From the NCBI GenBank assembly GCA_015055535.1, contig SVIA01000001.1:15805-79804 (forward strand): 64,000 nt of DNA, in the 5' to 3' direction. Positions within the stretch are counted from its first letter, which is position 1, and each line of letters starts with the position of its first letter. Both the position numbers and the translations under genes were made by a program. The notes under the pieces were generated by a model. That model was not told the DNA's origin and searched no databases. It worked only from the letters and a program-made list of their open reading frames with translations. This DNA is from Clostridiales bacterium. Lineage in GTDB: Bacteria; Bacillota; Clostridia; Christensenellales; UBA1242. Of the stretch, positions 22,282 to 51,956 are shown one piece after another.

Positions 22282-25200
22282 TTAATAAACATTTGGATAA
22301 ACATTAACTCCATTATTATTAGTTTCATTATCCACGCTATAAATTAAGTAATCATAATCATTACTATAAACAATTTCCGCCACAGAAGAACCGGCATCTT
22401 TATAACCTACAGTATGACCAATATAATTTTTACAACCATTATTAGTAGCATTTGTTACTATTAATGTTAGAGGATAAGTTACACTATTGTCTACACTATA
22501 TATAATAGTCTTTTCTGCACCACTATTTATTTTATAATTTGTTATTTGATAATTTTTACAATTATTAATAGCAGCTTTATTTAAATTTGCTCCAGCAATA
22601 AATGCTGCATAAATTTTAATGTTTGTTGTAGAAGTTAAATTAGTAATTCCTTGTTCTATATCTTGTACCGCAAAATCAATTATCGCGTAATTGCTACAAC
22701 CAATTATTCTAGTATTAGAAGTTCCTATGTTAACTCCAGCAATTCCTCCAACATAACTTAATGCATTAATAGCACTAGTTTGAGTATCAATTAATTGTTT
22801 TAATCTTCCAACAACACCACCATATACATTACAATTTGCAATGTAACCTTGATTTAGACCAGCAATTATACCTGTATACTGAACATTTTTACCATAATTT
22901 ATTACAAAGTTAGCCACAATATTAACGTTACTTATAATACCTTTTGTACCCACAACTCCAAATAAGCCAAAGTAGTTTGAAGTACTATATTTTTGAATAT
23001 CATTAATATATGTTAAACCGTTTATAAAATTATTGTTTCCGTTAAATGTTCCGTTAAAGTTATAAATATCATTTCCAAGAGATTTTATTTCTTTTCCAGT
23101 TGCTTCAATGTTATCTGTTAAATTAACAAATATTTGATTATTTCCAGTTTCAACAACTTCAGCTAGGTCATTTAAAGCCATAACAGAATCTACAAGATAA
23201 GGATTTGCAAACGTGCCTTCTCCTTCTAATTTTTTAACGTTTATATTATTAGTAGATTTTAATGTTGGAATTTTAGAATAATCTAAATTTGTGGCCGACA
23301 CATAAGCATTGCTTATATTATCAAATATATTAGAACTAAAACGTGTAAATGGATTAATTAATGTCTTTCCAATTCGTTTTGCACAAGAATTTTCATCATT
23401 TTTCCTTTCAAAACCAAAATCTTCAAACACATTACAAGCATAATAGCCATAGTCATAAATATAACGTTCTTTAGTTTCATAAACCATTTTTCCGTTTGCA
23501 TCGTAAACAATTTCACCACCTAAAGCTGTAAATTGAGTTTTATATGCATTATAAATCATATCCCCAGTATTAGCTATTTCAGGTTCTTCCCATGTTATTT
23601 TATGAGTTATATAATAGTTATTTTCCATAATATAACTTATTTTATGAGCAATTTCAACACTGCCGCCGCTTGATTGAATTGTGTTTTGAACTGCACCAAA
23701 CATAGCTCCAATGTATTTTTCATTTTTTAAACTATCTTCTCTAAATTGATTTAATGCAATAGCATTAGCTATATACATTACATTGTTTTCTTTGATAGTT
23801 ACCTCATCTCCATCAGGAAGAACAATTTTCTTTTGTTCATTAATTGACATGCTACATAAATTGCTTTTTATACCAGCTTGACCAACAATACCACCAATTT
23901 TTAAACTTGAATATACATTGTTAATTGCAATAACGCTACTAATGCTTCCGCCAACAGCAAGACCAACAACGCCACCCGCAATAGTTGTTTCTGCATGTTT
24001 AGAAATTGTAGAAACTCTTGCAATACTATTAACAATTGTTCCATTGTTATTAAATCCAACAATACCACCTATAATGTAAACTCGATTTTTAAAAATTGTT
24101 AATTCTTGATCTTCTTCTTCGCTATATAATGTTTCAGCTCTAGAAATATAACCACGGTTTTCACCTACTACAATTCCTGCTGCGTATGTAGAATTTAAAT
24201 AACTTGAAGAATCAGCATAAACTTTAACATTATCTACACCACTATCTTCACAAATTAAACCAAAACCAAGTCCCACAAATTGTCCAATAGTTTTAACACC
24301 ACTATTTACAACTATGTTTCTAATATTTTCGTTTTTATCATCTGACGAATCTACATTTACTACACCACAAATACCACCGGCATAATTAATTAAAGTATTG
24401 TTTAGTTTTCCATCATTTTCAGGCAATACATAATCACCATCTATATAAATTCTATTTTCATTACTCAACACGTCAACAAAGTTTGCGTTAACCGAAATAT
24501 CAGAATTGATGTTAATTATTTTAGAATTTCCAAGAACTTCACCAACAACACCACCAACTATATTTTTACCTTGAACAATAATATTTTTAGCATTGATAGT
24601 AATATTTATAATATCCGCATTATAAATACTACCAGCAATTGTTCCAACCTTTTGAACATTATTAGCATAAACTTCTAAAGGTTCTAAAATTAAATTTTTA
24701 ACAACTGGTCTTACACTTCCTTGTTGTTTAATTTCACTAAATAATCCAAAGCTTGATTTATCAAAATCAGATGACGCAGAAATAGAAATACCCGAAATTG
24801 TAAGTCCGTTGCCATCTAATCTGCCACTAAATACGTATTTACTTGTAGGTAAATTACTATAAGCGCTAAAATTAATATTATTTATTAATCTATAAAAATA
24901 ATTATTAGTTTTTAAACTTGATGTAAAGTAAGCTAAAAATTCTTCTTCACTAGAAATGATAGTTGGATTTTTTTCATGACCAGCGTAGTATTTGTCATAT
25001 TTATAAGTATAAACCGCACTTCCAGAAGAATCTACATAAGAATTGAAAAGTGATCGCACACTTTCTGCAATATCATTAGCAGAAATCAATGTTGGTGTTA
25101 GTGTTTCATCTCTAAACATCCAAATACCAGTGTCATCAAAAACAAAGTTGGTTAAATAATATTCATTATTAAATTGTTTTAAAGTTAAGCCTGTAACCAA

Positions 25201-28200: not shown

Positions 28201-31200
28201 TTTAATAGTAATGGTTTCTTCAGCTTTTCTATTTAATAAACTATAAATATGAATTTGAGCAACTCCAGGTTTACGTACAGTTATTACACCATTACTATCT
28301 ATATTTAAAACATCTTTGTTTAAACTTTCCAATTGAATCATACTTAATTGTTGATTTTCTTCACTATTACCAGGATAGTTAGATGTAATTGAGAAAATAT
28401 AACTTTGTAAGTAATTATTGTAATTAGCTAAATTTAAATCATAATAATACAAAACTACTAACTTTTCATCTGCAACACTAGCATTAATAAATTTGTTAAA
28501 GCCAAAATCAGCATTTACTAGTGTTGTATCGTTAATATCAACGGTAATAGATTCTGGAGCAACAATTCCAACCCCAACTGCTGAACCTTGATAGGTATTA
28601 CTTGCTTTATTTAATTTGAAGTTAGCCACATTATTTTTTACTATTGCAATATTTGTATAGCCATCTCCACAATAAATGCCGCCAAAATTATCACCATTAC
28701 AAACAACGTCAGAAAGTGAAATATTTTCTTTGGTTTCAGATACAAAACTTGTAACAAAGTTGTTTTCTAGTGTAATTGAACAAGCGCTTCCAATTAAACC
28801 TGCAACAAAATCTTCACCATAAATTTTTACATTATTTGTATTATCATCTAAAAATACCACCGCATTATTTATAATTTCACCAACAGCACCTGTTTGATTT
28901 CCTATTAAACCACCAACGTTATTGTTTGCTTTTAAAGTAGAGGCTGTAAAACAAGAATATATATTTCCTTTATTTATTCCAGCCACACCACCTACATTAC
29001 TATAAGCTAACACTTGGCCATAAGTAGACAAACCAACTTTATTAGTTTTATCGCCAATTGTACCACTATTTAATCCAACTATTAAACCAAAGGCACAACT
29101 GTTATTTAAGTATAATAAATCATTATCTAAAACACTAGAAAGTGTTGCTGTAACATTAATTTTATCTTTATTAAATACTTCGTTATCACCGCTATAAATA
29201 TTAAAATTATCTACTATGCTTCCAATGTTTTCACCAACTAAGCCCCCAACTAAAATTTTAAGCTTAGTGTTTAATGTTAAATTGTTTGATTTTTGATATT
29301 TACTAAAGCCATCTAGAACATTTAAATTTCCACTAGCTTTACAACTTTCAATAATAGCATCTTTCGTATTTATTCCGGCTATTAATCCAATGTTATTAGC
29401 TTTGTTTTCGTTTCCTAAATATGTAGTGATAGTGCCAGAATATACATTTACTTGACAAGATGAAATTGTTCCGCTATTTATTCCTGCAATTGCACCGAAA
29501 TAAAAACTATAATTTTTATTCATTGAATTTTCTTTAATAGAAGTTATTTCATCTGAATTTACACTTAAAACAGCATCTATTTTAGAATAATATACATTTA
29601 AACCAGTAATTTGTCCTTTGTTGTGAGCAAATAAACCTAAATAATATTCATATTCATTTGATAAATTATTTAAATTTTTAACTTCTCCAAAGTCATTAAC
29701 AATATTTAATCCAGAAATTGTATATTGTTTTTCTATATTTCCTACAGTAAATTTACCACTAAAACTTCCTGTAAAATCTACTTTTTTGTATTGAGTTATT
29801 CCATTATTATTTACAGCATAAACACCAATTGGGAATATGTTTTCACCAGTCATATCAATATCACTAGTTAAAATATATTTTTTTGAATATCTATCTGCAT
29901 GATTACTATCTTCAACAATATTGGTTGAACAAAGTTGCAATAATTCTTCTTTAGTGCTTATTTTATAAGGTATTGTTTCACCATCTGCAACAATTACTTT
30001 TATTTTTCTAGCACAATTTTCCTTATAATCTGTTTCACTAATAAAACTAGCTGTTGGAACTAAAATTAATTCGCATTCGCCCGCCTTTACAGGAGTTACC
30101 TTGCCAGTTTCTTGATTAAATAAAATTGGGTCTTCTCCTATTGGATTTGTTTTTATAATAACTTTATAATTTGTATTATAACTGTTTAGAGGATAAACTC
30201 TTGGATTTAATTCAATTTCTGAAGTTTGTCCTAAATTAAAGTATAAATAATCTTGCTTAACTCCATCTTCTTCAATTTTATTTATATTATCTAAAAGTAT
30301 TGTTTCTGGACTTTGTGGTTTTGTAACTTTAATAGTTACTTTTCTAGTATAAATAATATCAAACTCGTAAATAGTAAATGTTATTGTACCAGTTGTTGTT
30401 ACTGTTTGATTTTTTAAATCTTTAGCAATAACATTTAAAACATATTTATCAGTTATAACAGCATTAGTTTCAATGTCAGCATCTGTTACAAAATTTGCAT
30501 GATATTGTATTTTATTATAATCAACCTTACTTGCATTTGTTGGATTTATAATTACTTCTATACTTGCTTTACTTAAATCTTTATCGCCAAATCCCAAGCT
30601 ACTTTCTGCATATAACGAAACATATGTTTCACTTAAAGTAATTGTTTTAACAGGAATATAAACTGAAACTTTAAAACTTAAAGAATGCTCTATTACTTTT
30701 CCACTTTCATTTTTTGCTGAAATTTTAGCTATAACAGTAACATCTTGACTAGTTTCTTGTAATGCCGAAACTTTGTTATCTACGTTACTAACAATAATGT
30801 TGTTGTTATTATTAACTAATTCATAATTTACAGTATAAATATTTTTATCTAAAATAAGATTATTATTTTTATCATACGCTTTCAAAACTAATTGCGCTTT
30901 TTCGTATACTTTTAAAGCAAAACTAGAAAGAATACCATCTTCATATACAATTTGACCCAAATAATTGTTTTTGGTAATTTCATCAACATCAATTTTAAAA
31001 CTTTCTACTGGAGTAAATACAGATACTTCGATTTCTTTAGTATATCCATTTTCAAAGTTTAAAGTTACTTTTGTTTTTCCTGTAGTTAAAGCTTTTAATG
31101 TAAATGTTTTGTTTTCATAATTAGTATTTAATAAACTTACTATATTTTCATTTTCAACAGTAACACTATATCTTGGAATATAAATATCATCTTGACTAAA

Positions 31201-32745: not shown

Positions 32746-32788
32746 AATTTCTCCTTAAAACAAAGATGTTTTAATGTAAAATAACATT

Positions 32789-32839: not shown

Positions 32840-32921
32840 ATAAATTAACCCAAAGGTTAAATCAACTAAGAATTACTAACTGTAACCGTAAACTTATTTA
32901 ATTATTAACATAATGCTTTAA

Positions 32922-38900: not shown

Positions 38901-41900
38901 TTTTAATGAATAACAAGTATCTATTGTTGTATTTTTAACATTTCCAGCTATTCCACCAGCATTTGTTATAAATCCACAAAAGTTAATTACATCGTGTGCT
39001 GTTTGAGTAGAATGATCAATGTTATCAGCAGAATTAGGAGTCTTAATATACGTATTTAATTCTTTAACATTAATTTCAATATTACTTACACTATTTAAAA
39101 TGTTATTTTCTGAACCATTTAATAAGCCAACTAAACCACCAGCATTTAAATTATAATTACTTGCAAATTGAATTAACTCTTCACTTTTTGCAATAGTTTG
39201 AATTATTCCATCTGCATAACAACCATCTAAATTAACGTTTGCTTCAGCACTTGAAATAATTGAACCAATATTTATATGTTTTTCAGAAATTTCAGCAGTT
39301 AACGTTAAGTTTGTTAATGCAAAATTTTTAATATTTATTACAAGGTCTTTTTCTTGGTTACTGCTATCTGTAAATTTACTTAAATTGTTATAAAATAAAC
39401 CATATTCAAGTGACTCTTCTTCTAATGACTCATTTTTGATTGAAGCGCTGTCAATAACTAGTCCGTTAATAGCATAACCATTACCTAAAATATTTAATGA
39501 TTTTTTAATTTCTTTTGGAGTATATACATAAGCAACTTCATTTACTTTATTTACATTAGCCCCAGGTTCTGCGTCTTCTGGAAGTTTATTTTCATAAACC
39601 AAACCAACAAAACTACGAACTAAATTTATATTAATTTCATCATAAGTATCACATACTGTAAAGATCTTTTCAAATACTCCAAGGTTAATAGCGTTATAAT
39701 ACGTTTTATTATCTACTACTATACTTGTAATTAAAGCATCGTCAATAAAGTCATCGTCTTCATAAATACTTAATTGAGGATAACTATATCCATACAATAC
39801 CCCTAAGTTAGATTCTGTCCAAATCTCACTTGAGTTATTATCTGCCCATAATTTATCATAAATTTCGTTAGTTTTTACATAATTTACACCATTATTATAT
39901 CTATAATCAACATCAAAATTACCGTTTGCAAAAATATCAACATAGTTATTTGCAAATTTAGCATCTGTAGAAGCATTTGCAAAAGAATTATTGTAAATTT
40001 CATAATTATTGTTATCTAATTTTGTTTCTGGTAATGTTACAGCACAAACGTTGTTAACCATAATATCTGCAGCTTGAGAAACAAAACCGGCCATATTAGA
40101 ACACCATTCATTAACAGTGTTAACATTATAATTACTTTCGCCTTGATAAACTTCAATGCTACCAACCGCAATAGAATTTGTGATTGTACTATTATTTATT
40201 GCAACAAAACCAGCAATTTTATTGCCTAAACCTTTAACTGCAACATTAGAATCAACTTCTATCATTATTCTAACATTTGAAGTTACATTATTAATTAAAC
40301 CAGTATTTTCTATTGTCACTGGGGCAAGATGTATATCGCTTTTTGTATACATATTTCCAACAACAACACAGTTAAATAATGTACCATTATTAGCGCCTGT
40401 TACTATTGAATGAATATCCGTTTCGTCTTCTATTATATTTCCATTTGCGTCTGTTGTTTTAATATATTCAACATAATTTATACCATTTATACTAACGTTT
40501 CCTTCTTCTAGTTTAATTACAACACTAGATAGTAAAGCGTTTGGTGAAATGGTTTTTGCTAATGTTTTTGTTGAAACCGTAATTGTTTTTCCATTACCAA
40601 TAATATTACCTTTTAATGCTTCAATTGGAGTTGAAACAATAATATTACTAGTCAATAAATAATATTGATTATCAGAAGTAGAATTTATATCATTATCCTT
40701 TTCTATTGGATCGTAAACACTACCCTCTGTAAATGTTCCATTTTCTTTTGTATAATTATCAACTGTAAGTTGAATATCATCTGTTTCAGTTTCTAAAATG
40801 CTATTAAATACTTCTTTTACACTATTTAATTTAGAATTAACGAAGTTAGAATAGCTAATTGCATTGCCGTAATCAGTATTTCTTACATTTACTTGAGCTA
40901 AATCTTCAATAAAGTAGTAATTTGTAAAATAGCAATCACCCGAAACTCTTCCAATTATACCCGCAATATTAGATAAGCAAGCAGTATAAGCTGTAATTTT
41001 ACCTACAAAATATGTAGGGCTAGTAGATTCGTTTACCGTATTTGCGTTAGCAATTATACCTGAAACATTAAAGTTTTCGTGAGAATCTAATTTAGATGCA
41101 TCTCGAACTGTTATGTTAGTTGCACTTACAGAATTTCCTACAGTACAGTTTTTTGCAAAAGCAATTAAACCAGCAACATTTGCATTTGTTGTATCGTCTA
41201 GTTTCATTTTCACTGATAAAGCATTTCCAACATAAATATTTTTTGCTGTAACATTTATTGCATTTCCAATTAATGAAGCAACATTAATTGTAGTTACAGA
41301 GCTAGCGGAAGTTGCTTCAACTGAAATTATACTCTCTACATTGTTTCCTAAAATTGATACTTTATCTATTGTAATTTCATTAGTATTTCGTCCTTCAACA
41401 AAACCAAATAATCCACCAACATGTATATTACAATCAGAAGAATTAGTATAAGTTGAGGTTGTTATATTAATTTGGTTAACTTGAACATTTTTAATGCCAC
41501 AACTTGTTGTCGCTGAAAGTTTTCCGGCTAAACCGCCAACATAAATGTCTTTACCACCTTTAGTAACAATATTTACATTGTTTAAAGTAACATTTTTTAT
41601 ATCACTTTTAATAGATACATTACCAAACACAGCACCAAAATTACCATTAACAAATGTATTTACATTGTTTGTTGGATTTTCTACTGTTAAACTATATTTG
41701 TTTACATTAGCGTTTGTTAATGAAACTGAACCAGAGCCTAAAATTGCTCCCACGTTATGTGTGTTTTTGCTATCTTCATTTGTTTGTGGATAATAATTAG
41801 TTTGTTTGTTGATTGTTAAGTTAGATACTTTTACATTAGTAAGAGTAACCCCATTACCAGTAGTTGATCCAATTACACCACCAACATTTTGAATATTAGT

Positions 41901-44900
41901 ATTAATTCCACCATTTACATATTCAACATTAACATTTTTAAGTGTTGCACTATCTGCTTGTGCAGAAACAGCCCCTAAACTTAGTTGACTTGTAGCTGTA
42001 CCACCACTGATAACATTTATACCTAATTTATTAGATGGAGAATTAGCTAAATAAGCTTCCCAACTAGCCATTGGAGTAGCTGGATTAAAGTTTTCATCGT
42101 TTTTATTATCTCCTTCTTTAGGATCAGCATACATTGAACCTACAACAAAAGATACATTTTCTATTACTGAATTATTAGAAAGTTTTTTAAAGAACCCTAC
42201 GTTATTTATTCCCGCAGCACTGGCATCTATATTTAAGTTATAAATTTTATAATAACTACTACCATGTTTTTCTGCTGCTTCTGAAGAATCTCTAAGTGCA
42301 CTTGATAATCTACCTGTAAAGTTTTCAAGAGGAACCCAAGGTTTTGTTAAATAAATATCTTGAGTTAATTCATAACTACCAGCTCTTAACATATTCCTTA
42401 AATCATCTTCATTTGTAATAGATTTTAATGAACCTTTTTTATTATAAATTAAATAAGGATAAGTTCTATATTCATCTGGTAAACACCAGTTATCATTACT
42501 ATAATTAATAAAACCACAATTTTTAGCAATATATTCACTTAAACTGTTGTTTGTAACACCAGATACACTAAGACCATTTGAAGCAGGAAGTGTAGTACAA
42601 TGTCCAACTTCACAATTTATTAATTCTACACCTGCGGCATCATTATAACCAATCATAGAAGCTAAGCTGAAGTTTTCACTAGTTTCAGTATTTTTTATAA
42701 GAGATACTGCATCTAAAATTGAACTGTTTTGAGCAAAATTTGATGCACCAAATACACTTACTCTACCAATAAATCCAGCATATCCTTTGTTTTTAGTTAT
42801 TAAACCGCTTGGTTGTTTTTCCATATCTTGTGCTTCTAAGTAAGAAACAGTATAAACATGGTCAATATTTGCTCTATTAAATAATCCAACGCTTGAACCT
42901 ACGTAGATTGTATTTTTAGCAACAATATCAACTTTTGCATAAGAATTTGTTAATAAACCTTTATTTAATATACCAACAATACCACCTACATAATAAGCTT
43001 TATTGTTTTCATTTGAGAATAGATAAGCATTTTTATAAGTAGCATCTTTATCACGTTCTAATTGAATTTCTTCTTTTAATTCAACTTTTGCATAAGTTAT
43101 ATAGCCGCTACTTTCACCAGCAATACCGCCAGCAGCATAGTCAGCAATAATATTTTGAGTGTTACTTTCATTTAAAACAAATGTAGTATCGAACACTATA
43201 CTTCCTTCACCAACGTAACCAAATAATCCACCAACTACGTCACCTTGAAGTTTTATATCTCCATAAGTGCTAGTAAATGTAATATGTGCATTAGAGCTAT
43301 CTTGAGTATTAGTTCTATCTATTAAAGCATTAACATAATATGAATTCATATTAGATTGTTGAGAGAATTGTCTTACAACTGTTTTGTAAATGTCTACAAC
43401 ACCAAATAATCCACCAACAAAACTTACATTATTATTTAATTTTTCAGTTATTGTATTGTAAGTATATTTATAAATTTGTTTTTCTGAAATTAAGTTATAA
43501 GTAAAGTCAGTAGTTTGATTATCATGAGTAGCTTGTACTGATAAACTAGATGAAACACCAGAAACAAAACTGTTTCCACTAATTCTACCAGCAATACCAC
43601 CTACTAAATTTCTACCTACAACAACTACTCCATTATCGCTAGAAACATTAATATTGTAAAGTTTTGAATTAATAACTTCACCACTAAGTGTTCCAACGCT
43701 ACGAGTTTGTGTAGCAGAAATTGCGTCTATTTTAAAGTTAATATTTTTAATTACTGTGCAATTATCTTCATCTAATTTATCGTTATAAATGTTTCCAACA
43801 TTATTATAAGTAGATTCAACACCTATTTGTTTAAATAAACCAAATGATGAATAATTTGTAGAATTATTTTTTGCGGCGATTGTAACTTTATCAATGATCA
43901 TTCCATTACCATTTAAGTTACCTGCAAAAATAATATCTTGAAGTTTAGCAACTTCATTTGCTGAACTAACTAAAGTGTTATTATCTATAATACTAGATAA
44001 ATCAATATCTTTAATTAATCTAATATGTTTATAATTAACGTTAGTTTGTCTTATTTTACCATTGAAATAATAGCTATATAAATTATTTGAATCTGTTAAA
44101 GCTGATAAAAGTTCTTGAGAAGTAGCTACAATAATAGGATTATATTTAGTACCTATATTATAAATACTATTAGTATATACATAATTATATTGCTCTGTAT
44201 TAGAACCTTGATCATCTACTAGTTTTCTTTCACTAATTGTATTTACATTTGCGTCATATAAAGTTGGCATTTTGCCTTCTTCAAATACCCAAATTGTAGA
44301 AGATGAATTATCGCTTATAAAGCCTTCAAAATATTTTGAATTTTCAAAACTACCAATTCCATTAGCCGGTTCTAAATATGCATCTTTATCTGAACCATTT
44401 ATATCTCCGTTGAAAGCATAATAACAATATTTAATGCCTTTGTTATTTAAAACAACATTTTCTTCGTTATTACCAGTGAAATATCTAAATGCTTGAGCAC
44501 TATCTCCGCCATTAATAGAAGCTGAATAGCTAGTTTCAACTGTTCCGTTTGTATTATCATAAACAAATCCAGCACTTCTTTTATTTGTAGTAACTTTTAA
44601 GTTTGCATAACAATCTTTAATATTTCCATTATTTATGTTTACAAATCCGCCAGCATAGTTGTTAGCATAAATACCACCTTCAGAATAAGCGTTAGGATAA
44701 ACATGATTTAATCCATAACTTTCTGTATTTCCTTCTACATAGCTTGTAACAACTTGACCGTTATTTTCTGCAACAAAACCTGCAGTATATTGTGTTTTAG
44801 AATTATTATAAATAATAGTATTTACAACAAAGCTAGAAGCAATTTTGTTATTATTAACAGCTGTTAAACCACCAATATTAGCACTAGAATTAATGCTAAT

Positions 44901-47900
44901 TTTATTATAGTATTTTGTGTTACCATTTTCAAATATAGAAGCTTTTGTACCAACTTTAGAATTAGTAATATAACCATTGTTAACACCAGAAATTAAACCA
45001 ATATTTACTTCTGAATTAGTACTTGTGTTTACTTTAATAGTTATAGTTTCGTATTGATTAGCATTATTAATTAATCTTAAATTATTATTTATAATTTCAC
45101 AATTTGTAATAATACCATTATTTGTACCTGCAATAATACCAAAATTTAAAGCTGTTAAATTTTGAGCATTAATATTTAAACCGTAATAATAAGTAGTACT
45201 ATCATAGAAAATTGTAGGTAATAAATTAACTTTTACATTTTTAATTATAGTATCGCTAGATACTTCGTTGAATATACCCAAATTATTAACATTTGTTTCT
45301 GTAATAGTAAAACCTTGTAAGTTTATTGTTTTATTATTACCATCTAAACTAGCTATTTTAGTAGATATACCAGTAAATGAACTATCTATAGTAATATCAT
45401 TTAATAAAATATAGTTTTGACCTTCTTGCATATTTACAAAGTCTTCATAAGAATAAACAGGTATTGGATGGTCAGATGAAGAATATGTTTGAATATTTAA
45501 TCCAAACTCTGTTCTAAATTCTATATCTGCAAAATTATAAACATTTGGAGAACCATTTTCATATATAATGTTTGCTTTTAATAGTAAGTTATTAGTAGAA
45601 ACTGATTTTCCATTAATTAATAGATATCCATCATCAGATGTAGAAACTGTAAAGTTACCATGATTAGCTCCATCTATTAAGTTTGTATAAACAAAATTTC
45701 CACCAGTAGTTTGAGTAACTAAGTTCCAAGATAAGTATGATTTAGAAATCATTTCTTCTAAATGTTGTATTTTTAAATTAATGTTAGATAAAGCTGAAGC
45801 TTTTTCATATTCAGTGCTTGCACTAAATGTTTCATTACATTTTATAACGTCTAACTTAGCTTTTAAAAGCGTTGAATTACCAACATTATTATTTAAAACA
45901 CCATCTTGAGCGCCTTCAACAATTAATCCTTTAATAACAAAATCAACTATTTCAATTTCTATTGGTTGACTATTTGAAGTAACTTCTTTACCATACATAT
46001 AATGAGTAAATGTAGGAGTTATTGTAATTTTTGTACCACTTGTAGATAAAATGTCTGTTGATAAAGTTAATACATTATTTTCAAAGCTTTTAGTAATTTC
46101 TGCATCGCTTTCAATTATAAAGTTATCTTCCCCAAGAAGTAATCCTTCTGGTAAATTTACAGATTTTACATTTAATTTTAATTCACTACCTTTTGCCAAA
46201 TAGAAATTATCTTTTGTTCCATCTGTATTTTCTAAAATTATAGTAGTTAAAGGTTTAGCAATTAACTCTATAGTAGTTTCTATTTTTTCAGTTCCTTGAT
46301 TATAATATGCAATTACAGTTACTGTAAAGATAGTATCTTCTATAACGTTAGTTGGAAGAAGTGTAGAAACATAAATATTTCCATCATAAGAGAAAACACC
46401 ATTATTTATTTTTGATTTATTTAAAGATAATTGTAATCCGTTTTGAATAGAATTTTCGTGAGCTATTACAACTAAATCTTTATCTTTATAAGCTAATTGA
46501 TTAAAGTTAATAGCTACATTGTTATTAACTGAACTTATAATTTCTAGTTTTGATAATTGTGCATAACTAGGATATAAATTAATGTTTAATACCCCTAAAT
46601 TACCAGCAACAATTTCAGTTGATGGAAGTTTATCTGGAGTAATTAAACTGTTAAATTGATCAATTTGAGTTAATGATGAAGCAAAATGATTTAATTCAAC
46701 ACTAATTAATTTAACACTTCTTACTAAAACTTCAATTTCAAGATTTAAATCAGTGTTAGTTTCATCAAAGAATTTTACAGTATAAATTTTATCAGTTTCA
46801 GCACCAATATTTGCTGATGATACAATAACAGTAAATATTTTATCTGTATTACTAGTCTTTTCTGAAATATCAAAATTTAAGGCATTATTTATTTCTTTAC
46901 CATTAGAATCATATACAACAAAATCTAATTTTGATCCATTAGCAACGTAAACATCAAAAGAAATGCTTTCTGTTTCTATTAATTCTACTTGTCTAACATC
47001 ACTATAAATAGATGTTGCACCTGTAGTAACGATAAATGATAAATTATTTTTTAGTAAAGAATAATCTACAAAATTATAAGCAATATTATTAAACTTTACA
47101 TTATAATAAGGAGCTATATTGAAAGTAGTTGTAACATCGCTTAACCCTTTAAATATATGTAATGAATTACTTGAATATATTTCACTATTTTCAACAACGG
47201 TATTGTTATATAAAGCGTTTTCTTTTATATCAGCTTTAAATTTAAAATATACGCCTGCATCTTTACCGTCATTTAAAGAAATACCCAATTCTTTTGTTTT
47301 ATTAGTTAAAATTTTAAATTCATTATTATGTTCGCCAGTTAAATTTAACAATTTTAAACTTTCAACTTTTTCAACAACGCTTACATAAAGTTCAACAGAT
47401 AATTTGTTTAAATAACTAATTGTAATTGTTGCATCACCAGTGTTTACAATAGTTATTAATCCATTTGCATCTATTGTTAAAACGTTTACATTTGAGCTAG
47501 TAAAAGAAATATGTTCATTACCCTCTACATTTGAATTAATAATATTGTTAATGTTATATATTAAATTATTTGTTTTATATATAACGGCTTTATTAACCAT
47601 ATTATCTTCGTTTACTACAATAATATTATTATCATAACCAAAGTAATATTTATTAGAGCTATTTTCTACGCTATTTTTTACAACAAAATTAGCTTCAATA
47701 TATTCAGGTTCAATTGTAATTAAACCAATTCCGTTATAATTTAAATATGGTAAACCATTATTAACATTTGTTTTATATACAAAGTTTCCAGTTTTAAATA
47801 CATCATTACTTAAAACTGCAGAATAATTATATTTTGTATAATTGTTTTTAGTTTCATCTGAGCCAACTGTACCATAAACATAAGCACTGCCTGTAGAATA

Positions 47901-50900
47901 TGTGTTTTGAATAGTTGAATTAGTTACAATACTTACTAAAGCAATACTTACTGATGCATCTGCATTAACAGAATATGAATAAGCGTCTGTAACACTACAA
48001 TTTGTAGCACTATAAACTAAAGCACCAACATCTGTACCGCTTAAAATTACATCGGTATAAACTGCAGTAAACTTAACATTATTTGCTTCAGCCACTAAAC
48101 CACCAACGGTTGTACCTTTAATATCATAGTAATTTTCTAAAGCAACTAAACTATTTACAAATGAATAAGAAATTTCTGTATTTTCAGCCTTAGCAAATAA
48201 ACCCCCAACTGTAGTACCAACAATGTTAGCACCATATGTTGTTTTAGACAAGTTAGCAAGTTCTACAAAAATTAATTTAAACGAACCATTTATAGCTTTT
48301 GAAGCAATACCACCAACTAAAGAACCTGCTTTTGTTGAATTGATAACTCCTTCAAACATTAAATTACTATTTTCGCTAGTAGAATTAAATTCACCTACTA
48401 AACCACCAACTTCATTAGAATTAGTATCTAATTTAACTAATGCCTTAACATTGTTTACGCTACCTGTTGATTCACCTACTACGCCACCAATTATAGCATT
48501 TTCAACATTTACATTAATATTTAAATTAGCTGTAACTTGTTTTTCTTCAGTTTTGTTTAAGTAATTATATCCACCAACAATTGTCCCAGTATTTTTACCA
48601 ACTAAGCCACCAAAAACTAATCCTGAATAATTATTGTTATTATTAACTGTTATTACACCATATGAATTTCCGCCACTAACAACACATTTTTCAATAGTTC
48701 CGTTATTTTCAGCAAACATAGTACCAACATTAATAATTTCATTATTTGCTGGTTGTGAAATTGTAAATGTACTTGGTTGGATTTGTAAAGTGACATTTTT
48801 CACAGTACCATTATTAATATTTGATAAAATACCATAGTTTGCACTAGTATTAATAGATTGTCCACTAGCGATAATAACATTTAAATTTTCGATTGTTGTA
48901 TTTTGTGGAATTTCTGTTCCAAAAACGTTTACATTATTTAAAGTGCCTTTGAATACTAAATTATATATTGCATCTTTGTTTTTTAAGTTAGCATATTCAC
49001 TATAAACAAATTTACCGTTTAATCCCGCAAAATTAGTAATAGTGTTGGCGCTTGTAACTTCTAAGTTTCTATCTAAAGTATAATATTTACCACTAACTGT
49101 AGCGCTAGGATTTTTTAATACATAAGGATAAGCACTAGAGCCATCTGCAACAACTACATAAATAGCTTTTGTTACTGAATAATTTCCATTTTCAGCGTAC
49201 TGACTTGCATTAGCTCTAACTTCAACTTTTGTTACGCCACCAGTTTTAACTGTAACAACACCATTATTATCAACAGTTACGCTATTACCTTCTTTAACTT
49301 CATAATTTAAAGATGGATTTGTAACTTGTTTTCCATTTTCATTATAAACTTCGGCCAAAATTTGTCCTAAAGTTTGTGTATTTTCTAAATATAAATAGCC
49401 CTTATCATTTAAAATATTAATTCCACTTGGAGCTACGTGTTTTACTAATTTAACTTTTAAATTAACCAAATGATATTCATTGCTTCCAGGTAAATCTTCA
49501 ATTCTTACTGTAAAACCAAAAATATATTCTCCATTGTTGAATACGTGATTTTTACCAGCCGCAAATTTAATTTTATCAAATTTACTATCTATTACATCTT
49601 CTAACGTATAATCATCGTTTTCTCTTAAGCTTGCTGGCATTGTATAATTTACCGCAATATTAGATAAATCATTATCATTTTTTCTTATATTCAAATAATC
49701 TTCTACGCATAAAACATTTAATTGTTTATTTAAACTATCAATATCAAGTCCGGCACCATCAACCAAAACAATTTCATCTTCTAAAACATCAATTTTTTCA
49801 ATTGGCCAATAAGTTTCAATATTAAATGTTTTTGTAACAACTTGACCCGCAACTAATGAATTTACATTTTCATTATCGTTATATAAAGTGATTGTTACAG
49901 TAATTGTTGCAGCACTTACACTTTTACCAACAGCTGTTAAGTAAAAGTTTAGTTTACTAGAATTAATTATACCAACTTTAACAACATCTGTATTATTGCT
50001 TTCAACTTTAACATCATAAATACTTGCATTAAAAGGATTTATTACACTAAAATTAGCAGTATTTTTGCCAGTTACTAAACCAACAAAATATTTTGTATCA
50101 GAATTTTCTACAACTTTTTTAATATTGTTGCTAGATAAATCTAATATCATATTATCTTCGGCATTTTCGTCGTAATTATAAATATTAATAAATTTGCTTT
50201 CAGTTTCTAAACCATTTTCACTATAAAGTTTAAATTCAATTTTCCCAGTTTCACCTAAACTTTTAATTGTAAATTTACTGTTTATAACGTCTTGAGTAAC
50301 TTGTACTAGTTCTGCTCCTTTAATTACATTTAATTGAACAAAACTTGCCAATTCAGAATTGGTTAAACCATTCACCAAATAATTTATATCAATTGATTTT
50401 CCACTTTCTAAATATAGTTCATTGTTTGTTTCTGTATAACTTAACATTCTAATTCCAGGATTTAAATTTAAGTCAATTTCTTTAACAATGTTACTATTAT
50501 CATAACTTTCACTATACACATTAGATATAAAAGTTAATTTTACTCCAGTTATTGGTTCATCTAAAGTTTTTGCTTTTATGTAAAAAATAGAATTATTATC
50601 AAAATTTAATCCAGTGAATGTTTCGTAATCTAATATTTCATATTGATATCTAACTTCAAGTAAATCAAAATCATTTTTAGAAATTTCTACTTTATAAGTT
50701 TTATCAAAAGCTCCCGCTTTAGAAATTATAGCATTAAAAGCTTGACCATTATCGCTGCCAGAGTAATAATCAAAAACATTGTAAGTTGTTTGAGTACTTT
50801 TATTTACAACTAATGAAATAGGGTATTCTCTAACAATAATAGGAATAACGAAACTTATGCCATATTCGTTAACCCCTTTGTATTTTAAAGTTAATTCAAT

Positions 50901-51956
50901 AGTATCTACATCAGGATTTACAGCAAAAACTTTAAATTTATTTAAATTTTTATTTGCATTTCCTTCATTTGTACTTGTAATTATTGAATTGTTTAATGTC
51001 GTTTTATCAAAAGTTAATTCAACCGCATCAAAATCTAAACCACTTTGTGTGTTTAAAAATACGCCAAAATCGATTTCTTTTTGTGAGTCTACATTAGAAG
51101 CAAGTAAAATTCCGTTTTCTAATAAATAACTTATTGAATTTTCATAATTAACATCTTCTATATTTGCAAAACCTGTAAAGTTTGATTGATATTGATTATT
51201 TATTGCATCTTTTAATCCTAACCCAAACACAACATCTTGTGCTGTTATCTTTCTATAAACTTTAATGGTAACTTCTTTTGAAAGCTGTGGATTATTTACG
51301 CTTGTAACATTAATTTTAACCTCTGTTAAAGGAATATTATCATCACTTAAATATTTTTGTACACTTATTTTTCCATCTGTGCTTAAACTTACACCATGAC
51401 TTTCAACTAAACCATTATCTACAAGAGAATAAACAACATCTCTCTCTGTAGTATTACTAGGTTCAAAATTTATTAAGTTAGAGGTATTTATGAAATAATC
51501 ATTGCCATCAGCAACGACATAAGGTTTATATGTTTGATTAATAGAAAAACTTGTAACCGGAATTTTTACACTTACAGATAAGTTACAAGACTTATTACCT
51601 TCTGCCGATGTAAAAGTGATTACAACCGATGGCTCATATGAAGAAATATTTTCTAACGCTGAAATTTTAAATCTTGCAAAATTGCTATCTGAAGATTCAA
51701 GTTTTTCAACTGTTACAATATTTGGTTTACTCATGCTATATGTAATTTCTCTACTTGCACTGTTTGGCGCATTAGTAATTTTTATAGCAACCTCTTTGCT
51801 CTTTTCTTCCTCCGCTCCATTCATAGTTAATGTAATGTGGCTTTCACCATTTACTTCAATCTTAAAATTTGCATATTTGTTTGTACAACCATATGCAATC
51901 CCTGTAAATGATAAAAACATTAAAATTAAACCTGTTAAAAATTTTTTAAATTTCAT
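32922..51956 (-). CDS. giant surface lipoprotein A (6344 aa): Ig-like beta-sandwich arrays plus at least eight GLUG-motif beta-helix cassettes and one internal cationic amphipathic/hydrophobic segment
   Basis: Uninterrupted 19,035-nt ORF with a GAGGA SD. Signal MKFKKFLTGLILMFLSFTGIAYG|C. Big_2-like units (e.g. ISFTSSNVNVLTIDANGLITIVNTGDATITISY). Very many GLUG-type turns (FGGLVGKNTGTIVGGY, IGGVVGESTGSVNNV, VGGIAGRISGNSFVSG, YVGGIVGILNKGLLTNSYA). Confidence 0.85.
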   Translation of the reverse strand: MKFKKFLTGLILMFLSFTGIAYGCTNKYANFKIEVNGESHITLTMNGAEEEKSKEVAIKITNAPNSASREITYSMSKPNIVTVEKLESSDSNFARFKISALENISSYEPSVVITFTSAEGNKSCNLSVSVKIPVTSFSINQTYKPYVVADGNDYFINTSNLINFEPSNTTERDVVYSLVDNGLVESHGVSLSTDGKISVQKYLSDDNIPLTEVKINVTSVNNPQLSKEVTIKVYRKITAQDVVFGLGLKDAINNQYQSNFTGFANIEDVNYENSISYLLENGILLASNVDSQKEIDFGVFLNTQSGLDFDAVELTFDKTTLNNSIITSTNEGNANKNLNKFKVFAVNPDVDTIELTLKYKGVNEYGISFVIPIIVREYPISLVVNKSTQTTYNVFDYYSGSDNGQAFNAIISKAGAFDKTYKVEISKNDFDLLEVRYQYEILDYETFTGLNFDNNSIFYIKAKTLDEPITGVKLTFISNVYSESYDNSNIVKEIDLNLNPGIRMLSYTETNNELYLESGKSIDINYLVNGLTNSELASFVQLNVIKGAELVQVTQDVINSKFTIKSLGETGKIEFKLYSENGLETESKFINIYNYDENAEDNMILDLSSNNIKKVVENSDTKYFVGLVTGKNTANFSVINPFNASIYDVKVESNNTDVVKVGIINSSKLNFYLTAVGKSVSAATITVTITLYNDNENVNSLVAGQVVTKTFNIETYWPIEKIDVLEDEIVLVDGAGLDIDSLNKQLNVLCVEDYLNIRKNDNDLSNIAVNYTMPASLRENDDYTLEDVIDSKFDKIKFAAGKNHVFNNGEYIFGFTVRIEDLPGSNEYHLVNLKVKLVKHVAPSGINILNDKGYLYLENTQTLGQILAEVYNENGKQVTNPSLNYEVKEGNSVTVDNNGVVTVKTGGVTKVEVRANASQYAENGNYSVTKAIYVVVADGSSAYPYVLKNPSATVSGKYYTLDRNLEVTSANTITNFAGLNGKFVYSEYANLKNKDAIYNLVFKGTLNNVNVFGTEIPQNTTIENLNVIIASGQSINTSANYGILSNINNGTVKNVTLQIQPSTFTISQPANNEIINVGTMFAENNGTIEKCVVSGGNSYGVITVNNNNNYSGLVFGGLVGKNTGTIVGGYNYLNKTEEKQVTANLNINVNVENAIIGGVVGESTGSVNNVKALVKLDTNSNEVGGLVGEFNSTSENSNLMFEGVINSTKAGSLVGGIASKAINGSFKLIFVELANLSKTTYGANIVGTTVGGLFAKAENTEISYSFVNSLVALENYYDIKGTTVGGLVAEANNVKFTAVYTDVILSGTDVGALVYSATNCSVTDAYSYSVNADASVSIALVSIVTNSTIQNTYSTGSAYVYGTVGSDETKNNYTKYNYSAVLSNDVFKTGNFVYKTNVNNGLPYLNYNGIGLITIEPEYIEANFVVKNSVENSSNKYYFGYDNNIIVVNEDNMVNKAVIYKTNNLIYNINNIINSNVEGNEHISFTSSNVNVLTIDANGLITIVNTGDATITISYLNKLSVELYVSVVEKVESLKLLNLTGEHNNEFKILTNKTKELGISLNDGKDAGVYFKFKADIKENALYNNTVVENSEIYSSNSLHIFKGLSDVTTTFNIAPYYNVKFNNIAYNFVDYSLLKNNLSFIVTTGATSIYSDVRQVELIETESISFDVYVANGSKLDFVVYDSNGKEINNALNFDISEKTSNTDKIFTVIVSSANIGAETDKIYTVKFFDETNTDLNLEIEVLVRSVKLISVELNHFASSLTQIDQFNSLITPDKLPSTEIVAGNLGVLNINLYPSYAQLSKLEIISSVNNNVAINFNQLAYKDKDLVVIAHENSIQNGLQLSLNKSKINNGVFSYDGNIYVSTLLPTNVIEDTIFTVTVIAYYNQGTEKIETTIELIAKPLTTIILENTDGTKDNFYLAKGSELKLNVKSVNLPEGLLLGEDNFIIESDAEITKSFENNVLTLSTDILSTSGTKITITPTFTHYMYGKEVTSNSQPIEIEIVDFVIKGLIVEGAQDGVLNNNVGNSTLLKAKLDVIKCNETFSASTEYEKASALSNINLKIQHLEEMISKSYLSWNLVTQTTGGNFVYTNLIDGANHGNFTVSTSDDGYLLINGKSVSTNNLLLKANIIYENGSPNVYNFADIEFRTEFGLNIQTYSSSDHPIPVYSYEDFVNMQEGQNYILLNDITIDSSFTGISTKIASLDGNNKTINLQGFTITETNVNNLGIFNEVSSDTIIKNVKVNLLPTIFYDSTTYYYGLNINAQNLTALNFGIIAGTNNGIITNCEIINNNLRLINNANQYETITIKVNTSTNSEVNIGLISGVNNGYITNSKVGTKASIFENGNTKYYNKISINSSANIGGLTAVNNNKIASSFVVNTIIYNNSKTQYTAGFVAENNGQVVTSYVEGNTESYGLNHVYPNAYSEGGIYANNYAGGFVNINNGNIKDCYANLKVTTNKRSAGFVYDNTNGTVETSYSASINGGDSAQAFRYFTGNNEENVVLNNKGIKYCYYAFNGDINGSDKDAYLEPANGIGSFENSKYFEGFISDNSSSTIWVFEEGKMPTLYDANVNTISERKLVDDQGSNTEQYNYVYTNSIYNIGTKYNPIIVATSQELLSALTDSNNLYSYYFNGKIRQTNVNYKHIRLIKDIDLSSIIDNNTLVSSANEVAKLQDIIFAGNLNGNGMIIDKVTIAAKNNSTNYSSFGLFKQIGVESTYNNVGNIYNDKLDEDNCTVIKNINFKIDAISATQTRSVGTLSGEVINSKLYNINVSSDNGVVVVGRNLVGGIAGRISGNSFVSGVSSSLSVQATHDNQTTDFTYNLISEKQIYKYTYNTITEKLNNNVSFVGGLFGVVDIYKTVVRQFSQQSNMNSYYVNALIDRTNTQDSSNAHITFTSTYGDIKLQGDVVGGLFGYVGEGSIVFDTTFVLNESNTQNIIADYAAGGIAGESSGYITYAKVELKEEIQLERDKDATYKNAYLFSNENNKAYYVGGIVGILNKGLLTNSYAKVDIVAKNTIYVGSSVGLFNRANIDHVYTVSYLEAQDMEKQPSGLITKNKGYAGFIGRVSVFGASNFAQNSSILDAVSLIKNTETSENFSLASMIGYNDAAGVELINCEVGHCTTLPASNGLSVSGVTNNSLSEYIAKNCGFINYSNDNWCLPDEYRTYPYLIYNKKGSLKSITNEDDLRNMLRAGSYELTQDIYLTKPWVPLENFTGRLSSALRDSSEAAEKHGSSYYKIYNLNIDASAAGINNVGFFKKLSNNSVIENVSFVVGSMYADPKEGDNKNDENFNPATPMASWEAYLANSPSNKLGINVISGGTATSQLSLGAVSAQADSATLKNVNVEYVNGGINTNIQNVGGVIGSTTGNGVTLTNVKVSNLTINKQTNYYPQTNEDSKNTHNVGAILGSGSVSLTNANVNKYSLTVENPTNNVNTFVNGNFGAVFGNVSIKSDIKNVTLNNVNIVTKGGKDIYVGGLAGKLSATTSCGIKNVQVNQINITTSTYTNSSDCNIHVGGLFGFVEGRNTNEITIDKVSILGNNVESIISVEATSASSVTTINVASLIGNAINVTAKNIYVGNALSVKMKLDDTTNANVAGLIAFAKNCTVGNSVSATNITVRDASKLDSHENFNVSGIIANANTVNESTSPTYFVGKITAYTACLSNIAGIIGRVSGDCYFTNYYFIEDLAQVNVRNTDYGNAISYSNFVNSKLNSVKEVFNSILETETDDIQLTVDNYTKENGTFTEGSVYDPIEKDNDINSTSDNQYYLLTSNIIVSTPIEALKGNIIGNGKTITVSTKTLAKTISPNALLSSVVIKLEEGNVSINGINYVEYIKTTDANGNIIEDETDIHSIVTGANNGTLFNCVVVGNMYTKSDIHLAPVTIENTGLINNVTSNVRIMIEVDSNVAVKGLGNKIAGFVAINNSTITNSIAVGSIEVYQGESNYNVNTVNEWCSNMAGFVSQAADIMVNNVCAVTLPETKLDNNNYEIYNNSFANASTDAKFANNYVDIFANGNFDVDYRYNNGVNYVKTNEIYDKLWADNNSSEIWTESNLGVLYGYSYPQLSIYEDDDFIDDALITSIVVDNKTYYNAINLGVFEKIFTVCDTYDEININLVRSFVGLVYENKLPEDAEPGANVNKVNEVAYVYTPKEIKKSLNILGNGYAINGLVIDSASIKNESLEEESLEYGLFYNNLSKFTDSSNQEKDLVINIKNFALTNLTLTAEISEKHINIGSIISSAEANVNLDGCYADGIIQTIAKSEELIQFASNYNLNAGGLVGLLNGSENNILNSVSNIEINVKELNTYIKTPNSADNIDHSTQTAHDVINFCGFITNAGGIAGNVKNTTIDTCYSLKDIVVSDSISANIAGIAGSVTSGTISNNSTISKPMYSGSYLGYYQDNGTTNLYYTINAIVGKNSGATIDTTKINKYSQLLSFVGDSNINSESETHEILSSFANDNNPFALHSGAYAGSYNSSQMVKLPKVVEITANNLGEVAEHMSFDGTTYTFTPHNDKFYIITLTEGSKVEFDTTNIAVTKTVMVSGQNTTITTYELNNTIIIFENNVVTTVESGTIFDKVINGTISNLTILGNGVAKENAYLSKEINNTKLFNITVKNPYVLNVKDDVIGQHGILVNKAENSVLTNITIGEGRLQIKEQTEKVYAGAVVGYAANTIVNNAKNNATITIENIEKECLTAGIIGYASKNVSMFQCYNNGNIYAKSKGAVKTQISGIANGNMNLIVSFSQNIGRIKIVHSGAGGSFDRYASGVANNAKILYSINKGQVLIVAESTSTASGIGSNSTILYSYNHGNIVSNKYLYLIGSGSNVYGCYNIGNGYRQGASQLQLMSDLNPKEKFVYGIDDIAFGISKANQSGTGENQWYYYLANANKDLIVDQTTDDKTSLEGAVSAEKLDIISGQNGVKLSLLRIRLIDESFYTLKTNADKDTYLIYTAFDLWYWQYYCIEDKQADGTTAMNVELMDDIDMSNYLYNTTQDKTFSGTFNGNYHTISWLVITPNADNTGLTHIGFIGKNAGTIKNIYFQDCRIETLNMQNIKLVDGTKRFGIVAAENSGTIQNVLVGATNSNVTFIDINYNDYDAPTGTAAWLYIGTITGYNTGTLSQCEVINLKTNGISYDIDFGSACSIIPWVYKSLYVFAGGIVGVTNGGSVTNCTYLSYLDGKVYNSTQSFSADEGGLGTAATVLVGYPFYSYVHHYTGPIVGRNGDYRNKSASCEVPTTDSSGIVSNCYYLQNSDLTSDELWGMETSGVDHYMHTGLIQNIMLAKRWGKWFFKGGVKTLKAAKETLRYTKWFYKKGAKAIDVAKDMGKVAKASNPVGWILLIAELALEAAQEIHNGTSYYHLTNTEGKEGDLSNYENIAYNSPYFNTFVQDSIGYESTFIDIASKRMGINSDTDKDSNLIPMLTNFLNLSKTKTAANTNADGDYVVNSANKLAWTLEYGDKTKKIILTDNIDMSTKIWDIDINPDDYSNSTIISNGFTVVLGANGKEDVYENITGEGKATNLVTLLTNKNIDFVVDVAAADNYGFFGDVARNDVKVSYDNFKKNFKEAYIQERMSEENYRSYWQGALGNNIQEELKTEYNNYADEYAGKLTEGYYPIINAKQLEIIADALTTYTTSDGIAHVGIDFTGMTFKILNDIDLSNSRITSLDYFDYEISKINVTYLAENNYKTETLDESAFNSFNKGKIIDTQFILKAPIFFPAVNGENTVDEKTIEMLWVQSQIFNGTITADEVNRPTIIVKDNLFYDLAPYAKISNLIVAPKNTTIDIMDNYNAYGWLVSNNNGELNNISLNLNGISDLTINYEFEYASMITSESIVYDSSSNPLQITGSDSLSVGLIVGQNAQNATINNCNIINANQITINTNINIQYSVTELDIAGQETVENGDGSQTVTKQMIDLDSETYRDSKRAITIDNYFGLIAGSNAGIISNIALDGITINYNNNVSVDDRLNCYYNSQTGGYAIKSGKKFILQRNNYVGLVSGVSSYSVDPILNISLSNCIFNFNAICTLKNNTTGIEDNDYNQGNITYYGAIAGLLESSLKTITLINNRWNVTYLGLGGVSININDENPNEDYKNSCTGGAIAGMLVPSIKLLTKVVNNEFLICANVNLAEFENIVTDATWFGKIIDYKYGKVEIGEDNNNKLYTGYIFAYSDITGKYEKIMQIEYIEYNGSSQKLCGSVNKDSSVDTSKTDIVFPTNPRKEIVIEIARTTVVKDENGSTVIADNYSNLNITNFNSNNFVVINYNNLKIELVNGNTLYVSTNFSTFADVKSIIMKQSDGTSIDTGATHNGTITYGGETRDVNATVSYTPISQANKIGFTVTETIKILPKEQPETT
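51885..51956 (-). other. lipoprotein signal peptide of giant A (Cys at residue 24)
   Basis: Same length and layout as in giant B. The lipobox A-Y-G-C is non-canonical at positions -3/-2 but has the G-C junction. Confidence 0.55.

Follow-up and report, generated by a model that had tools for sequence, protein, structure and literature searches.

Two giant predicted lipoproteins encoded as a conserved pair beside rpoBC in uncultured gut Clostridia

The sequence analysed here, referred to as the window, is a 64,000 nt stretch of contig SVIA01000001.1 (assembly GCA_015055535.1, positions 15,805 to 79,804), assigned to a Clostridiales bacterium of the Christensenellales (UBA1242). It contains two adjacent genes, designated A and B, which predict exceptionally large lipoproteins. 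On balance, A and B are probably co-expressed, lipid-anchored contact or adhesion fibres, a reading of the sequences and predicted structures that we hold at a little better than even. The modules themselves are of known types, namely Big_2-like immunoglobulin (Ig) domains and GLUG beta-helices. The pair is set apart by its lipobox anchoring, its obligatory pairing, its fixed locus beside rpoBC and the share of about 3-4% that it takes of a related, reduced metagenome-assembled genome (MAG) of 791 kb.

Gene A (32922..51956, minus strand) and gene B (22282..32745, minus strand) are single open reading frames (ORFs) of 6344 and 3487 amino acids (aa), respectively, separated by 176 nt. Together they span 29,675 nt, or 46% of the window, and these coordinates exactly reproduce those in a preliminary description of the same DNA. 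There is no in-frame TAA, TAG or TGA over the 9831 codons of A and B, compared with 354-590 and 603-1012 stops in the other two frames of that strand, so that neither can be a chance ORF. TAA is the stop codon of every one of the 23 ORFs of 150 aa or more in the window. The prfB gene for release factor 2 (62599..63706, minus strand) includes a programmed +1 frameshift site, AGGAG-CTT-TGA, at 63640..63654; the joined product is 368 aa, and a plain ORF listing gives only the 257-aa downstream part. This site indicates that UGA is a stop codon and that translation table 11 is the right code, which rules out a mollicute using code 4 as the source.

A check for misassembly found no long near-identical repeats or tandem arrays in the DNA. 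Independent MAG assemblies include full-length A orthologues of similar size (6343, 6251 and 6263 aa; 6251-6343 aa in loci L002-L004), and the B orthologues P0029, P0030 and P0034 span 98-99% of B. Both results speak against the assembly chimeras for which the preliminary description had allowed. The G+C content of the window is 22-33%. GC skew is negative throughout and nearly all large genes are on the minus strand, placing A and B on the G-rich, presumably leading, strand. The codon usage of A and B is like that of ordinary genes and unlike that of EF-Tu.

Both predicted proteins begin with a 24-residue lipoprotein signal peptide (51885..51956 for A and 32674..32745 for B, minus strand) that matches PROSITE pattern PS51257, which specifies a basic n-region, a hydrophobic h-region and a lipobox ending in Cys at position 15-35. 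The A signal is MKFKK...IAYG-C24 and the B signal MKIKK...LLFG-C24; residues 2-22 of A are helical in an AlphaFold2 (AF2) model. C24 is invariant in alignments A4 (13 sequences), A5 (11), A6 (7) and A7 (10), and both K5 and C24 are invariant among 13 B-type proteins. A lipobox was found within the first 45 aa of 114 of the 150 top family representatives, and the lipid-anchored pair proposed earlier, with Cys24 as the predicted lipidated residue in both proteins, is therefore upheld by the family as well as by the window proteins. Neither A nor B has a further transmembrane or hydrophobic segment beyond the signal. LP.TG is absent from both, as had been reported, which excludes a sortase-anchored adhesin.

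AF2 models were obtained for A 1-640, using an 11-sequence alignment, and for A 2150-2960. In the first (mean predicted local distance difference test score, pLDDT, of 83), the signal helix is followed by consecutive beta-sandwiches of ~100 aa, consistent with the tandem Ig-like units of ~90-100 aa recognised in the preliminary description. Foldseek returned 459 PDB matches at E≤1e-3 with cadherin and titin arrays on top; matches to protocadherin, cadherin, titin and S-layer Ig arrays have E-values of 1e-20 to 1e-11, and the S-layer proteins Sap (9g93) and SbsC (5ftx) are among them. Residues 25-930 of A (49167..51884, minus strand) were accordingly designated a tandem Ig/cadherin-like array, the putative proximal stalk, modelled over 1-640 and presumed to continue over 640-930. 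A second predicted Ig-like stretch, at approximately 1401-2140 (45537..47756, minus strand), is paralogous to B 1453-2130. Matches of the window proteins to Big_2 (PF02368) are sub-threshold (17.9, 16.0 and 13.5 bits, where 22.8 is required), lying at A 878-917 and, for Big_2 or Big-like domains, at A 1479-1514.

The Ig-like stretches alternate with predicted beta-helices. The first cassette of A, approximately residues 931-1400 (47757..49166, minus strand), is recognised from GGxxG sites at 1116-1285, Gly-rich bins and BLASTP similarity to the solenoid of relative P0001; its boundaries are approximate. Its equivalent in B, approximately residues 921-1400 (28546..29985, minus strand), has a near-threshold Glug match and an invariant G/N ladder in alignment A4. 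Beyond the second Ig-like stretch comes a double beta-helix core, at approximately 2141-3020 in A (42897..45536, minus strand) and 2131-2930 in B (23956..26355, minus strand), present in 140 and 145 of the 150 representatives, respectively, with 34% identity between the two window copies. AF2 folds A 2150-2960 as a short-strand solenoid with a mean pLDDT of 56.5, mostly 60-90 over model residues 13-330. The best Foldseek matches of the core are the Bacteroides ovatus protein 3n6z, annotated as a putative IgA1 protease (probability 1.00, TM-score 0.48 on the target), and 6xjb (probability 0.99), with E-values from 2.5e-3 to 5e-2. Further matches are PL6 alginate/chondroitin lyases, pectate lyases, tailspikes, GH136/GH55, Ag43 and Fap2.

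The runs of GG(L/I/V)xG turns noted previously were recovered as 24 sites in A and 13 in B, and form a beta-solenoid in the AF2 model. The assignment of these runs and of the sandwiches to GLUG and Ig-like families was correct at the level of the family but is sub-threshold in Pfam on A and B themselves. Glug (PF07581) scores 19.9 bits (cut-off 20.5; E 9e-4) in four stretches of B tile 901-1800, the best at B 1116-1141, and 12.4 bits in tile 1801-2700; there is no Glug match on A at E≤10. Among relatives, Glug is above cut-off in 5 of 10 A-type proteins (50 bits) and 1 of 13 B-type proteins, and Big_2 is also above cut-off in 5 of the 10 A-types (35 bits). In addition, the core profile A3 matches 17 proteins annotated with PF07581, with E-values of 1e-11 to 1e-90; a GLUG protein of Fibrobacter is among them (1.5e-45).

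Residues 3021-6344 of A (32925..42896, minus strand) form an A-specific distal region for which no Pfam, NCBIfam or PDB match was found; GGxxG and cap motifs suggest further beta-helix-like cassettes. Within it, residues 5266-5326 (35979..36161, minus strand) form a predicted K/W-rich amphipathic helical insert with a net charge of +12 and the top helical hydrophobic moment in A (0.59, against a 99th percentile of 0.45), and a hydrophobic helix comes next. K-rich counterparts of this insert occur in P0032, P0040, P0042 and L002, with none in L003 or L004.

BLASTP of A against B gives a single collinear high-scoring segment pair, B 1470-2929 with A 1483-3025 (27.6% identity, E 3e-82). The collinear paralogy proposed previously is thus confirmed but restricted to this segment, in addition to short conserved N-terminal motifs (F164/P166/N168/T169 in alignment A5). 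In a neighbour-joining tree of cores, a pure B-type clade of 68 sequences lies apart from a mostly A-type clade, indicating an ancient duplication with both copies retained.

The size of the family was estimated by exhaustive HMMER searches with a core profile, counting representatives of clusters at 50% identity. These identified 6002 representatives at E≤1e-3, 1821 at E≤1e-10 and 650 at E≤1e-30. The top 150 all have E≤1e-96 and match the whole profile at residues ~2200-3400. A word-indexed protein search had found only one or two matches, missing even the paralogue B in the window, and was saturated by N/I/S/T-rich sequence; as exhaustive searching found thousands of relatives, those few matches are an artefact of the method and not a sign of rarity, a caution that extends to proteins of low-GC genomes in general. 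The preliminary description had called the system undescribed. It is indeed uncharacterised, and no account of A- or B-type proteins was found in the literature on GLUG, giant Christensenellales lipoproteins, UBA1242 or Onthoplasma, but hundreds of homologues are already in databases as hypothetical proteins.

Family members fall into size classes of ~3.5k aa and 5-7.5k aa, and only the core of ~800 aa is common to nearly all of them (140-145 of 150 representatives). In the 113 representatives with complete N-termini, 2009-3280 aa separate the lipid Cys from the core. The residues that follow the core have a median of 239 in B-types and 2534 in A-types. Only 6-13 of 150 relatives align with the distal region of A. 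Between A and its counterparts in the closest species representatives (L002-L004), overall identity is 35-37%, compared with 78-81% for the adjacent ttcA. This identity is graded, from 35-50% in the proximal stalk and 50-68% in the core to 16-30% in the distal third, and distal A is, as judged from these alignments, the fastest-evolving part of the protein, a pattern resembling that of surface proteins.

The promoter, both Shine-Dalgarno (SD) sequences and the terminator named in the preliminary description were all recovered. A sigma-70-type promoter, TTGACA-18-TATAAT, is predicted upstream of A at 52037..52066 (minus strand); it agrees with the consensus at 12 of 12 positions and is the only perfect one in the region. 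A GAGGA SD precedes A and an AAGGAG SD precedes B. A bidirectional intrinsic terminator with a 15-bp stem, a 6-nt loop and T-runs on both sides is located after B at 22239..22274 (minus strand), separating B from rpoB. Within A, terminator-like matches are weak and about as frequent as chance predicts (5 against 4.1 expected), and no terminator-like site was found in the A-B intergenic region (32746..32921, minus strand). A and B are thus probably co-transcribed, which would give the single transcript of about 29.8 kb suggested in the preliminary description. The intergenic RNA has a minimum free energy of -40 kcal/mol (z = -2.76 against shuffles) and contains a 7-bp GC-rich hairpin without a U-tail, which could be a processing or stability element but showed no conservation in 80 related loci. 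An Rfam search of the window found two tRNAs only. The rpoB gene has its own promoter-like site, TTGACA-17-TAATAT with the TG of an extended -10 element, at 22173..22145. It is preceded by the giant-gene pair (region 22036..22281) and not by rplJ-rplL, as it is in most bacteria.

Related loci were confirmed in GTDB species representatives in 172 cases, and 80 of the 172 were examined. All 80 are from MAGs or assemblies of uncultured isolates, labelled Clostridia, Christensenella sp. UBAxxxx, Christensenellales, Ca. Onthoplasma or Ca. Caccopulliclostridium. Where titles or isolate names indicate a source, it is human, chicken, ruminant or probably mouse gut, in agreement with the host association suggested earlier. 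A divergent ttcA is found upstream of A-type genes in 19 of 41 loci. Of 23 B-type loci, 15 have the 3' end of a giant ORF 17-262 nt ahead of the B-type gene, and 16 have rpoB-rpoC after it. Five complete A-types have another lipobox ORF 6-106 nt downstream. Both the A-B pair and its linkage to rpoB are therefore conserved in related genomes, with the B-type following the A-type by 6-262 nt. As the rpoB genes of the 16 loci are only ~59% identical to that of the window, the arrangement of a divergent ttcA followed by A-B-rpoB-rpoC is old.

Four of the related loci (L031, L043, L044 and L051) belong to MAGs of family UBA1242 described by Begmatov et al. 2025 (PMC12306168). Those genomes measure <1 Mb and are missing upper glycolysis, biosynthetic pathways and standard transporters; they keep sporulation genes, and the organisms have been proposed to be obligate symbionts or parasites (PMC12306168). 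Neither that paper nor the other literature examined mentions A- or B-type proteins. The pair takes up at least 30.8 kb of MAG KY236-132 (791 kb), ~3.9% of the assembly. The earlier suggestion of a possibly wall-less bacterium is not retained, given that UGA is a stop codon, that relatives are Clostridia and Christensenellales, and that UBA1242 is reported to keep sporulation genes (PMC12306168).

By every test applied, A and B appear to be non-enzymatic. Neither contains HE..H, in agreement with the preliminary description, or H..EH, and ten tiles searched against Pfam revealed no catalytic family even at E≤10. At the same threshold there is no match to SLH, LysM or choline-binding repeats, as previously reported, nor to CWB2, M26 or G5 domains, and no Pfam match to an autotransporter barrel or two-partner secretion (TPS) domain. 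Ten NCBIfam tiles gave no catalytic family at E 1, and the known enzymatic domains that might have reclassified the proteins are thus not found in either collection. PADLOC also returned nothing; a defence system was considered and rejected. PDB sequence searches with a single sequence, 3- and 13-sequence profiles and the distal 3325 aa gave nothing meaningful, and the window proteins showed no domain of a toxin, a pore-forming protein or a peptidoglycan hydrolase. In an alignment of 137 cores, 63 columns are ≥90% conserved and almost all are Gly, Asn, Phe or Ile ladder positions. The only polar or aromatic residues among them are Y2177, D2182, D2200 (in the DGNG cap), S2328, W2551 and R2641, which sit in cap or turn motifs, and there is no conserved His, Cys or Glu.

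Several known systems resemble A and B in part. The closest are GLUG proteins (PF07581) such as BACOVA_03286 of B. ovatus (3n6z), which share a right-handed beta-helix with GGxxG-x-N-x-G-x-I coils and a DGNG-type N-cap, and GLUG motif-containing proteins of ~776 aa, for example from Fibrobacter sp. UWCM; the A/B core profile matches proteins with PF07581 at E-values of 1e-30 to 1e-47. However, the module in A and B is doubled, forms a conserved 800-aa unit and lies beyond residue 2000 of lipoproteins of 3.5-7.5k aa, and Pfam Glug is below cut-off on the window proteins. GLUG modules are functionally uncharacterised, so that the resemblance gives no mechanism. Giant adhesins with Ig-like repeats (SiiE, LapA/Bap-type, Staphylococcus aureus Ebh) are long tandem beta-sandwich rods by which a distal binding region is kept at a distance from the cell. 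The AF2 array of A similarly resembles cadherin and titin strings, and Big_2 passes in half of the A-type relatives examined. In contrast to these adhesins, A and B have an N-terminal lipobox in place of type I secretion system retention, LPxTG or a C-terminal transmembrane anchor, their Ig arrays are interleaved with GLUG beta-helices, and they form an obligatory paralogous pair beside rpoBC.

Diderm beta-helical adhesins (Ag43, 4kh3; Fap2, 9qe7; and FHA-type) are adhesive right-handed beta-helix rods found among the Foldseek matches of the core. These matches are weak (TM-score 0.1-0.2), and A and B probably come from a monoderm Clostridium and have neither a C-terminal autotransporter barrel nor an N-terminal TPS domain. 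An autotransporter was rejected on these grounds, related loci with the same gene order all being labelled Clostridia or Bacillota. M26 IgA1 metalloproteases/Zmp of Streptococcus and Gemella (6xjb, 6xja) are likewise large Gram-positive surface proteins with a beta-helix, NTD2, which is the gating domain in the pneumococcal enzyme 6xjb (PMC9637739). M26 activity requires an HExxH zinc motif and a downstream Glu (PMC9637739). A and B have neither this motif (HEMTH/HExxH with the downstream Glu) nor the M26 catalytic domain, G5 or LPxTG, and an assignment as Zmp/IgA proteases was rejected. The giant genes of Omnitrophota (bioRxiv 10.1101/2023.11.21.568195) also commit a large share of a small genome to beta-helix-rich extracellular proteins in presumably partner-dependent cells, but there is no sequence relationship, and they have many transmembrane regions and SecA-DEAD domains where A and B have only a lipoprotein signal. 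The Clostridia giant genes in that study are RCC1 and Listeria-Bacteroides repeat proteins, not members of the A/B family.

In the mechanism that we propose, A and B would be anciently duplicated, co-transcribed lipoproteins processed by Sec, Lgt and Lsp. An N-terminal diacylglyceryl-Cys would tether each of them to the cytoplasmic membrane of the producing cell, a monoderm gut Clostridium of the Christensenellales/UBA1242 type. In each protein a rod-like stalk of 2000 residues or more, made up of an Ig/cadherin-like array, a beta-helix and more Ig-like domains, would carry the double GLUG-type core of ~800 aa well beyond the cell wall. B would end shortly past the core, and A would extend ~3300 residues further as rapidly diverging beta-helix cassettes. 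This variable distal part may determine which partner cells, host mucus or particles are bound, and the conserved core may have a structural or docking role, possibly as the interface between A and B. For a partner-dependent, transporter-poor organism, adhesion or contact would be the most economical function.

A number of observations weigh against these contact or adhesion fibres. Beta-helices also scaffold lyases, glycosidases and proteases, so that an unrecognised catalytic site is possible, and one of the 10 A-type relatives carries Transglut_core (Pfam, E 5.5e-12). For the beta-helix, the quality of the model is medium (mean pLDDT 56.5) and the best Foldseek E-value, 2.5e-3, is weak. Neither lgt nor lspA is within the 64-kb window. 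None of the four identified UBA1242 loci includes rpoB, and the MAGs of the rpoB-bearing loci, whose rpoB is only ~59% identical to that of the window, are labelled only Clostridia, Clostridiales, Eubacteriales, Lachnospiraceae or Firmicutes.

The first alternative is a cell-envelope coat or spacer, in which A and B would form a dense S-layer- or glycocalyx-like palisade acting as a barrier to phage, immune factors or bile, or organising the wall. Such a coat would fit the universal presence of the pair in the lineage, its fixed architecture and its fixed position beside core genes, and a fast-evolving distal part would be expected under exposure to phage or immunity. Sap and SbsC among the Foldseek matches of the N-terminal array also point this way, but they are generic Ig-array matches and the sole resemblance to S-layers; S-layer membership was rejected, with no SLH or wall-binding module and no self-assembly domain detected. 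Ordinary codon usage, not EF-Tu-like, gives no sign of very high abundance, and proteins of 3.5-6.3k aa would make a costly lattice for a genome of <1 Mb. We consider a coat unlikely.

Surface-tethered enzymes are the second alternative. One or more beta-helix cassettes would then act as polysaccharide lyases, glycosidases or proteases on host mucin, dietary glycans or partner walls, in the manner of PL1/PL6 lyases, phage tailspikes and IgA proteases, and an organism poor in transporters and biosynthesis would gain from scavenging (PMC12306168). PL6, pectate lyases, tailspikes and GH136/GH55 are among the Foldseek matches of the core, but TM-scores of 0.1-0.2 and E-values >1e-3 indicate a generic beta-helix. 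Besides the relative with Transglut_core, one relative in alignment A7 (P0093...P0099) has a weak match to a hyaluronate-lyase N-terminal beta-domain. A regular-expression search of the relatives for the transglutaminase catalytic motif found no match, and the two domain matches suggest variable accessory domains in the family. With no catalytic family in the Pfam or NCBIfam tiles, no HExxH, and a core whose conserved G/N/F/I ladders include no conserved acid/base set, an enzymatic role for A and B themselves seems quite unlikely.

A third alternative is contact-dependent attack or uptake, in which the fibres would breach or remodel a partner envelope through membrane-active segments or a distal payload, feeding the dependent cell. 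The cationic amphipathic K/W-rich helix of A would be the candidate segment, but it is not conserved even in the closest orthologues, L003 and L004. The distal region of relatives appears occasionally to carry an enzymatic domain, but searches of A and B showed nothing of the toxin, pore-forming or peptidoglycan-hydrolase kind. UBA1242 bacteria have been proposed to depend on partner cells, and giant surface proteins have been implicated in predation by Omnitrophota (bioRxiv 10.1101/2023.11.21.568195). On this evidence attack or uptake is very doubtful. Finally, an artefact from assembly chimeras, decaying pseudogenes or mis-called frames, which a metagenomic contig of low G+C content with repetitiveness at the protein level might raise, is effectively refuted by the uninterrupted frames, the lack of long DNA repeats, dozens of independent assemblies in which full-length orthologues of matching size have the same neighbours, and 650 representative clusters at E≤1e-30.

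If A and B are contact or adhesion fibres, they bear on UBA1242-type bacteria, which are widespread in human, poultry and ruminant guts and suspected to depend on other cells (PMC12306168, PMC13155120). The pair is an obvious candidate for the interface with those cells, taking ~3-4% of such a genome at a locus kept at 59% rpoB identity. We put forward a more specific proposal tentatively, as possible but rather unlikely: that A and B form a lineage-defining contact organelle of genome-reduced gut Christensenellales of the UBA1242 type, a heteromeric, lipid-anchored fibre in which the cores dock A to B and the hypervariable distal part of A selects the partner cell that is lived off. If true, A and B would be the Firmicute counterpart of the attachment machinery of episymbiotic candidate phyla radiation (CPR) and DPANN cells. 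Independently of function, Pfam, NCBIfam and PDB sequence searches all miss this family, which numbers at least 650 clusters at 50% identity and whose 800-aa core could enter the domain collections as a new entry.

Other genes in the window include a class-I (archaeal-type) lysyl-tRNA synthetase gene (59056..60621, minus strand; TIGR00467, E 7e-112) in what is a Clostridia-like genome. Two further predicted surface proteins are encoded near the str/rpoBC cluster, a lipobox Big_3 protein (306..1544, minus strand) and a BspA-type leucine-rich-repeat protein (13216..14370, minus strand) with an N-terminal hydrophobic segment. A divergent pair of genes predicts glycosyltransferases of family GT4 (9354..10727, minus strand, and 10840..12060, plus strand). 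The product of the first resembles alpha-monoglucosyldiacylglycerol synthase and glycosyltransferases for the lipoteichoic acid anchor, and is probably involved in membrane glycolipid synthesis.

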